Origin: Escherichia phage nataliec
Reading direction: 5' to 3' (one strand)
Length of the DNA stretch: 64,000 nt
Sequence record: MN850611.1
Shown piece by piece: positions 27,381 to 27,524 of the stretch (its first letter is position 1; every line of letters begins with the position of its first letter). Made by a program: the position numbers and the translations under genes. Under the pieces are notes generated by a model that made no database searches, was not told the DNA's origin, and saw only the letters and a list, made by a program, of their open reading frames with translations.

Positions 27381-27524
27381 AATTATCTTTGTAGATAAGT
27401 TATTAAGCTTACCTGTGAGTATGCGACCACAAAGGGTGAAAGGGTAAATTCTAGATTTAAACCCAAAAAGGCACATCGCTACAGACCTTAAGCAAGTCTG
27501 GGTAGCTTATCTACAAAGATAATT
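27381..27524 (+). ncRNA. structured element closed by a 19-bp perfect inverted repeat
   Basis: AATTATCTTTGTAGATAAG (27381-27399) is the exact reverse complement of CTTATCTACAAAGATAATT (27506-27524); the 106-nt interior holds a further hairpin CAGAC...GTCTG. Confidence 0.4.

Follow-up and report, generated by a model that had tools for sequence, protein, structure and literature searches.

Y RNAs adjoin Ro60 genes in bacteria and phages (PMC4201824, PMC12135203). YrlA and YrlB of S. Typhimurium, Yrn1 of D. radiodurans, and Yrl1 and Yrl2 of the Thermus phage phiLo are small structured RNAs whose genes neighbour that of a Ro60-type ring protein and share its strand, and one genome often has several of them. 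In these Y RNAs, a terminal stem formed by the 5' and 3' ends surrounds internal loops and hairpins. The motifs published as binding Ro60 are GGUCCGA in animals and GNCGAAN0-1G or CGAA in bacteria and phiLo (PMC4201824, PMC12135203). The protein gp130 of phage Bas63 is reported to be Ro60-like and to be required against the ppl defence system, and its RNA partners are there only a matter of speculation ('some tRNA genes are possibly Y RNAs'; 10.1101/2024.10.10.617714).

Structured RNAs are also found in phage tRNA clusters and in polycistronic precursors. Species 1 and 2 of phage T4 (rnaC and rnaD) are stable RNAs of roughly 120-140 nt that lie in the tRNA cluster and are matured with the tRNAs, and species 1 RNA is a substrate of RNase III. 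The RNase III stems of rRNA operons and of T7 early transcripts are long duplexes of at least two helical turns that flank an RNA within its precursor. E. coli RNase III cuts near-perfect RNA helices of the 22-26-bp class.

The locus described here lies in a 64,000-nt stretch of Escherichia phage nataliec (MN850611.1), which is called the window below. The phage is Felix O1-like (Felixounavirus), a group of classic Salmonella and E. coli phages that are used in typing and therapy. Its tRNA array holds 24 tRNAs, all on the same strand, and the 428-nt gap at 27101-27528, from tRNA-Asp to tRNA-Lys, is 100% identical to that of phiWec172, phiWec174, and phiWec177 and 98.8% identical to that of Felix O1. 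Within this spacer is a 144-nt element, unit C, that is very probably a functional structured RNA. Its parts and the adjacent tRNA are the following:

27381-27524, + strand: unit C, a 144-nt structured RNA element, from its fold, its domain in the whole-spacer fold, and its conservation
27381-27404, + strand: 5' arm of P1, the terminal helix, pairing with 27501-27524
27409-27439, + strand: P2, an interior hairpin of the predicted fold, Felix O1-type allele, replaced in type II lineages
27442-27464, + strand: P3, a hairpin whose apical AUUCUAGAUU is kept in both allelic types
27482-27500, + strand: P4, a hairpin, CAGAC-CUUAAGCAA-GUCUG, that resembles the frame motif of neighbouring RNAs
27501-27524, + strand: 3' arm of P1, followed by UAAU and then tRNA-Lys
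27529-27604, + strand: tRNA-Lys(UUU), which starts 4 nt after unit C

The arms of unit C are AATTATCTTTGTAGATAAG at 27381-27399 and its exact reverse complement at 27506-27524, with 106 nt between them, and the inner CAGAC...GTCTG hairpin is present at 27482-27500. Both the 19-bp perfect repeat closing the element and the inner hairpin had been described in a first-pass annotation, whose statement that such a helix is far beyond chance also holds: at the base composition of the window, the expected number of perfect 19-bp repeats within 300 nt is 1.7e-4, and the longest inverted repeat in 20 shuffles is only 11-15 bp. The repeat grows to 22 nt at 95% complementarity, the stem has 24 pairs when G.U pairs are included (27381-27404 with 27501-27524), and no inverted repeat of the whole 64-kb window is longer. 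Unit C has a folding energy of -47.8 kcal/mol (z = -6.2 versus dinucleotide shuffles) and persists as a separate domain in the fold of the entire 428-nt spacer. The apex of P3 includes the palindrome UCUAGA (27450-27455, within AUUCUAGAUU), and this self-complementary loop could support dimerisation.

Unit C occupies one and the same place in 189 close relatives, takes divergent forms in tootiki, Seyj1-1, pSJ21, and Suspvirus and Mooglevirus phages, and sits at this site in every Ounavirinae lineage sampled. Covariation was assessed in 17 distinct unit C sequences, which comprise two allelic types (I, the Felix O1-type, and II). Common to both types are the terminal helix, the P3 apex AUUCUAGAUU, and the 3' inner hairpin; the remaining interior is unalignable. 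Across the 24 pairs of P1, 97.7% of cells are paired, and four pairs have changed on both sides. When P1 and P4 are taken jointly, 97% of cells are paired, versus 27-46% with the partners slid, and five pairs have changed on both sides, versus none in the slid controls. Type II has lost one base pair from both P1 arms together, every one-sided change in P1 and P4 is a wobble, and P4 covaries between A-U and G-C at columns 112/128. In P3 of type I, A-to-G changes (in L110 and Bas63) turn A-U into G.U. Because the G.U pairs exist only on the + strand, which is the tRNA strand, they argue together with the compensatory changes that unit C acts as an RNA. The independent events are few and come from a few lineages, so the covariation is solid but not deep. 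Among the options listed in the first-pass annotation, a highly structured noncoding RNA is one that the compensatory changes, the wobble-only single changes on the + strand, and the conservation support, and the comparison that it proposed between presence/absence polymorphism and covariation in related phages gives no polymorphism and a stem whose pairs covary.

Another of those options was a miniature inverted-repeat mobile insertion, here one without a function for the phage. Like miniature inverted-repeat transposable elements (MITEs), which are around 150 bp, unit C has terminal inverted repeats (19-22 nt) and a typical size. Unlike them, it is single-copy, in that a scan of the window allowing up to three mismatches matches nothing but its two arms; it has no match in 5,426 complete E. 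coli genomes; no transposase is nearby; and its flanks (...CTGGT/AATT...AATT/TAATG) contain no direct repeat and hence no target-site duplication. Its position is fixed in Felixounavirus, Suspvirus, and Mooglevirus, where its arms evolve by compensation and where the presence/absence polymorphism with target-site duplication that would favour an insertion is not seen. We therefore consider a MITE-like insertion extremely improbable.

An element that functions at the DNA level, such as a cruciform, a replication origin, or a protein-binding palindrome, could make use of the same repeat, in that a perfect 19-bp palindromic pair could extrude and the reverse strand, folded as a single strand, is also stable (-43.8 kcal/mol). 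However, the G.U pairs of the + strand correspond to A.C mismatches on the other strand or in DNA, and a second long-stem RNA, C2 (see below), has four such pairs. Moreover, the 100-nt interior has conserved hairpins of its own, and the site is inside a tRNA transcription unit. A DNA-level role is very unlikely on these grounds.

Strong sigma-70-like promoters are located at 25859, 25950, and 27778, and no terminator-like sites are called on the + strand in 25800-28400, which makes unit C internal to a polycistronic tRNA transcript. The attenuation signal proposed in the first-pass annotation would be an attenuator or terminator governing read-through into tRNA-Lys, tRNA-Met, and tRNA-Ile, and a very stable hairpin followed by the A/U-rich stretch AAUUUAAU is what such an element might look like. 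However, no + strand site is called at unit C, the stem is A/U-rich, the interior is 100 nt long, and there is no U tract. Because the three downstream tRNAs have no promoter of their own before 27778, termination at unit C would silence them. We give this proposal very little credence.

Several smaller features accompany the tRNA operon. The promoter at 27778 is near-consensus (TTGACA-17-TATAGT). Between it and a short hairpin at 27967-28010 are about 160 nt without a called gene (27807-27966), which hold a T-arm-like hairpin, GAGGUCUUCCAAUCCCUC (approximately 27907-27924), and weak, sub-threshold tmRNA-type matches; this region may be another small RNA. The hairpin at 27967-28010 ends in CUUUAAAGAUAAUUAC and is directly 5' of a tRNA at 28011-28089 that was missed by ARAGORN, scores 31.7 bits with the Rfam tRNA model, and is annotated as tRNA-Arg in Bas63. 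On paper, the 3' arm of this hairpin pairs with the 5' arm of unit C (17 nt, 88%). An inserted ORF encoding an HNH endonuclease (26022-26456) separates tRNA-Pro from the tRNA that follows (26458-26529), which is detected by Rfam and not by ARAGORN. In Bas63 and VSe11, tRNA-Glu follows tRNA-Pro with 7 nt between and no ORF, so the homing endonuclease shows presence/absence polymorphism.

The explanatory context of unit C, which the first-pass annotation missed, is this tRNA array, a Ro60-like gene, and neighbouring Y-RNA-like elements. The gene is approximately 1.5 kb upstream of unit C on the same strand. The relevant features of the window are the following:

24425-25840, + strand: gene for the Ro60-like protein (DUF2828 plus DUF7788/vWA by Pfam), orthologue of Bas63 gp130
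26538-26616, + strand: Y1, a short frame RNA in the spacer before tRNA-Met
26703-26775, + strand: Y2, a short frame RNA in the spacer before tRNA-Asn, recombined with Y4 in VSe11
27157-27240, + strand: Y3, a short frame RNA, GAGC-AGA-AGACCAA-AUUCAGCAA...UUGGUCU-G-GCUC
27243-27383, + strand: Y4, a frame RNA with a permuted tRNA-like domain, from a strict frame match, spacer alignment, and fold
27304-27320, + strand: T arm of Y4, invariant
27321-27338, + strand: acceptor hairpin of Y4, followed by U-G
27341-27355, + strand: D arm of Y4, with GG
28586-28676, + strand: C2, a long-stem RNA that ends 2 nt 5' of tRNA-Leu(UAG)

The Ro60-like protein is 97% identical to Bas63 gp130 (bas63_0130). A search of the PDB with the single protein sequence gave no match, and a profile search of the PDB gave Ro60/TROVE matches at sub-threshold levels only. 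An AlphaFold model from the single sequence was unusable (pLDDT 45) and was replaced by one based on an alignment of 46 homologues (pLDDT 88). With this model, the top 10 Foldseek matches in the PDB are all Ro60, Rsr, or TROVE proteins, aligned over the full length with E-values from 6e-9 to 4e-7, and include Xenopus Ro60, D. radiodurans Rsr, and the Ro60 of phiLo.

Y1 to Y4 share the consensus frame AC-AGA-AGACCNN-WUWCAGCAA...NNGGUCU-G-G. They are unannotated and have no Rfam match. In Y4, the frame UUUAC-AGA-AGACCGU-UUACAGCAA...ACGGUCU-G-GUAAU surrounds the tRNA-like domain, which is cloverleaf-like in the whole-spacer fold and, like that of YrlA, runs from the T arm through the acceptor hairpin to the D arm (PMC4201824). 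Its acceptor helix is fully compensated in three lineages (ACUCGGC/GUCGAGU, ACACGUU/GGCGUGU, and ACCCUUC/GAAGGGU). Y4 overlaps the 5' arm of unit C by approximately 3 nt. Searches with Rfam, at permissive thresholds in the 428-nt spacer and at gathering thresholds in 13 distant loci, found nothing but tRNAs and one group I intron, and no description of unit C or the frame RNAs was found in the literature searched.

The frame motif accompanies the DUF2828 gene family well beyond this phage. In 75 viral contigs (IMG/VR, L015-L089) that encode 38-47% identical relatives of the Ro60-like protein, strict frames were sought, defined as a 6-bp helix, 0-2 nt, WUHCNGCAA, and a complementary strand ending in CU or CA and followed by G. 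There are 72 matches on the gene strand and none on the opposite strand, with 2-4 in shuffles. They occur in 45 of the 75 distant loci, and 54 of the 72 are less than 500 nt from the Ro60-like gene. The frame inserts range from 4 to about 250 nt, many have a permuted tRNA-like domain, and the RNAs are often in tandem. Positions 3-7 of the frame helix vary freely among phages, while the motif, the 3' G, and the A-U and G-C pairs that close the helix do not vary. Examples from distant loci are:

L077, 6386-6991: distant-locus frame example
L017, 3266-3381: distant-locus frame example
L039, 6360-6575: distant-locus frame example

These DUF2828-linked frame RNAs look like a Y-RNA-like family that is seemingly undescribed. 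In some distant loci, frames are found inside long stems. In L015, the nearest outgroup, a 19-bp stem whose arms are similar to those of unit C encloses a near-canonical frame (AGAAGAC-AUUCAGCAA...CUUCU-G); this stem abuts tRNA-Pro and is just downstream of promoters that come after the Ro60-like gene. L039 has a tRNA-like frame RNA within a 22-bp stem.

Two candidate copies of the motif within type II forms of unit C were rejected. A second mini-frame (GAAUU...GAUUC) was dropped, because covariation favours another helix, AUUUCCU/AGGAAAU, and the UUACUGCAA of the type II 3' arm is within the paired stem and absent in type I, so its match to the motif is treated as coincidence.

Deletions in relatives show unit C retained as its neighbours are lost. 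Upstream of unit C, ESCO45 lacks tRNA-Asp, Y3, and the greater part of Y4; downstream, it lacks tRNA-Met, tRNA-Ile, and the greater part of tRNA-Lys; its 144-nt unit C is nevertheless intact. VSe11 has Y2 fused to Y4 with the intervening part lost, and unit C is kept. The relevant stretches are 1480-1700 of L118 (ESCO45) and 1200-1340 of L119 (VSe11). The repeated frame sequences serve as recombination substrates in both phages.

Open reading frames also overlap unit C, and hypothetical proteins are annotated over it in several records. These ORFs are:

27246-27476, - strand: ORF of 76 aa
27346-27447, + strand: ORF of 33 aa
bas63_0138, - strand: ORF annotated over unit C in Bas63

As real genes, they would have to be reconciled with an interior that is replaced in type II lineages, such that the ORFs are not conserved, with their position relative to the tRNA-like domain of Y4, which they cross in antisense or within which they begin, and with substitutions that track RNA pairing and not codons. 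A protein-coding function is accordingly most improbable. The hypothetical proteins of these spacers (bas63_0137, bas63_0138, bas63_0145, and those in many Felixounavirus records) are probably annotation artefacts, mostly on the wrong strand.

Unit C and C2 are two RNAs of the same design in one genome. C2 has a stem of about 26 bp, including four G.U pairs, and a folding energy of -37.6 kcal/mol (z = -6.7). The stem covaries in SFPB, Michonne, and EcSzw_1 (Mooglevirus and Suspvirus), where the 5' interior is replaced, and the inner 3' hairpin, ACCW-UUGUUGCUU-WGGU, covaries around an invariant loop. With Rfam, C2 yields a weak plant microRNA-like hairpin (MIR473) alone, below threshold. The 3' arm plus leader of C2, CUAAAAAGAUUUAAU/GG, matches that of unit C, CUACAAAGAUAAUUUAAU/GG, and an arm and leader of the latter type recur before tRNA-Leu and before the tRNA at 28011. 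The recurrence of a long stem immediately before whichever tRNA comes first after a spacer suggests that the 3' end of the RNA is set by RNase P and that the helix is end-protecting, with possible RNase III action. The invariant loop of C2, UUGCUU (28640-28645), is fully complementary to AAGCAA of the unit C P4 loop (27490-27495) and has 5-nt complementarity to the AGCAA that every frame motif contains. The complementarity between the C2 and P4 loops could reflect loop-loop pairing or chance.

The processing signal that the first-pass annotation also listed gains support from the position of unit C in a tRNA operon directly 5' of tRNA-Lys, and is compatible with the option of a noncoding RNA. 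In a narrower version, unit C would be only a processing or stability element, namely a site for RNase III or a hairpin that protects or insulates, and the excised RNA would have no function. Such an element might separate the spacer RNAs from the downstream tRNAs or ensure clean RNase P maturation of tRNA-Lys. Consistent with this, three hairpins with an AAAGAU(A)AUU... arm and leader each immediately precede the tRNA that comes first after a long spacer (27529, 28011, and 28677), the helices of unit C and C2 fall in the RNase III substrate class, lineages exchange the interior but keep the stem, and insertions in unit C are tolerated in Bas63. Unit C is also like the stems of rRNA operons and T7 early transcripts in being a duplex of around 20 bp or more in a precursor, with 19 perfect pairs, or 22-24 with wobbles. 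Unlike in those stems, the enclosed RNA has conserved hairpins, and RNase III cleavage here is putative. Because the unit C stem abuts a tRNA, RNase P alone could release unit C. Moreover, the P3 and P4 loops are invariant while their stems covary or wobble, and a bare cleavage site needs neither loop; the inner hairpin of C2 likewise combines an invariant loop with a covarying stem; the equivalent stem of L015 encloses a near-canonical frame; and ESCO45 keeps unit C though its tRNA-Lys is truncated. A role in processing alone thus retains a sizeable minority chance.

The reading that we favour, with a little less than even confidence, is that unit C, as a spacer-embedded long-stem RNA released by tRNA-processing enzymes, is part of the Y-RNA-like set. 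Like Y RNAs, it is near the gene of a Ro60 homologue, and its predicted 5' and 3' ends are paired by a covarying stem of 22-24 bp. Its clustering with four frame RNAs tied to the Ro60-like gene suggests a Y-RNA-like accessory RNA of a Ro60-like ribonucleoprotein. The context of P4, (C)UAC-AGACC-UUAAGCAA-GUCU-G-G(G)UAG, parallels UAC-AGA-AGACCGU-UUACAGCAA...ACGGUCU-G-GUA of Y2 and Y4, and the pattern AGAC-N3-9-GCAA-N0-2-GUCUG occurs once in the window versus 0.06 expected, for a pattern that was defined post hoc. A covariance model of the frame core (R1) was built from 53 distant-locus frames; its training alignment was selected for complementarity, so its 100% pairing is circular and is not evidence. 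In the window, P4 is not among the 28 R1 matches at E<=10, and when R1 is applied to unit C alone, only 'AGCAA' matches, at 0.8 bits.

Differences from Y RNAs concern both the protein and the RNAs. The proposed partner here is a DUF2828/DUF7788 protein that is Ro60-like by structure alone. The neighbouring RNAs use AG-helix-WUHCNGCAA...CU-G, and the published Ro60-binding motifs GGUCCGA, GNCGAAN0-1G, and CGAA are absent from 27381-27524. Unlike YrlA, unit C has no tRNA-like domain, with neither a T nor a D arm, and it is the neighbouring Y4 that has such a domain; nor does unit C have a clear copy of the frame motif or an Rfam family. The RNAs are in a tRNA operon and not in an rsr operon. In that respect unit C is like T4 species 1 and 2, but T4 rnaC is tRNA-like, in that it has a GGGUUCGAAUCCC T arm and its ends pair in an acceptor-like way, and was rejected as a homologue because it has no sequence or architectural similarity to unit C.

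Published knockout scores for Bas63 bear on the same question. In that phage, the minus-strand 'gene 138' is wholly inside unit C, and 'gene 137' covers Y4. The scores are:

Gene 130 (Ro60-like), knockout: S17 lab host +0.72/+0.60/+0.67; ppl host -2.87/-3.35/-3.65
Gene 137 (Y4), insertion: S17 lab host +0.88/+0.74/+0.39; ppl host +0.63/+0.55/+0.73
Gene 138 (unit C), insertion: S17 lab host +1.02/+1.03/+0.31; ppl host +0.87/+0.39/+0.18

Single insertions in genes 137 and 138 are neutral, so unit C is dispensable under these conditions and, alone, is not needed for the role against ppl. Redundancy among the six candidate RNAs could plausibly mask the effect of an insertion. That the interior of unit C is largely replaced between lineages fits a role in which mainly the stem matters. 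Membership of unit C in the Ro60-like/Y-like system is accordingly tentative, and somewhat more doubtful than probable. In the same data, gene 148, encoding tRNA-Ala (28844-28919 in the window), shows strong depletion in the ppl host (-2.75/-1.45/-2.04) and is neutral in the lab host (+0.83/+0.68/+0.64); this pattern is the same as that of the Ro60-like gene, a hint that ppl could act on RNA or tRNA rather than on DNA.

Unit C would be transcribed together with the tRNAs, starting at the sigma-70-like promoters near 25950. RNase P probably sets its 3' end, by cutting at the 5' end of tRNA-Lys, 4 nt downstream. The terminal helix of 22-24 bp would join both ends and shield them from exonucleases, and its length would suit host RNase III, for which it may be a natural substrate. 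If unit C is Y-RNA-like, its terminal stem would play the part of the Y RNA stem, and the conserved inner hairpins P3 and P4 might be the contact points. A more speculative and rather improbable extension is that unit C and C2 constitute a new class of long-stem partner RNAs, cut by RNase P and RNase III, that dock on frame RNAs by loop-loop pairing in an anti-defence gp130 particle.

The interest of unit C comes mainly from the system to which it points. Concrete candidates for the RNA partners of gp130 are available in the form of four frame RNAs, one of them tRNA-like, and two long-stem RNAs, and several 'hypothetical proteins' in the tRNA spacers probably represent RNA genes whose opposite strand was read. 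Many unrelated phages have a sequence-structure signature that goes with the DUF2828 Ro60-like gene, and the question of which RNAs a phage Ro60-like particle carries, and what role it has, is now directly testable.
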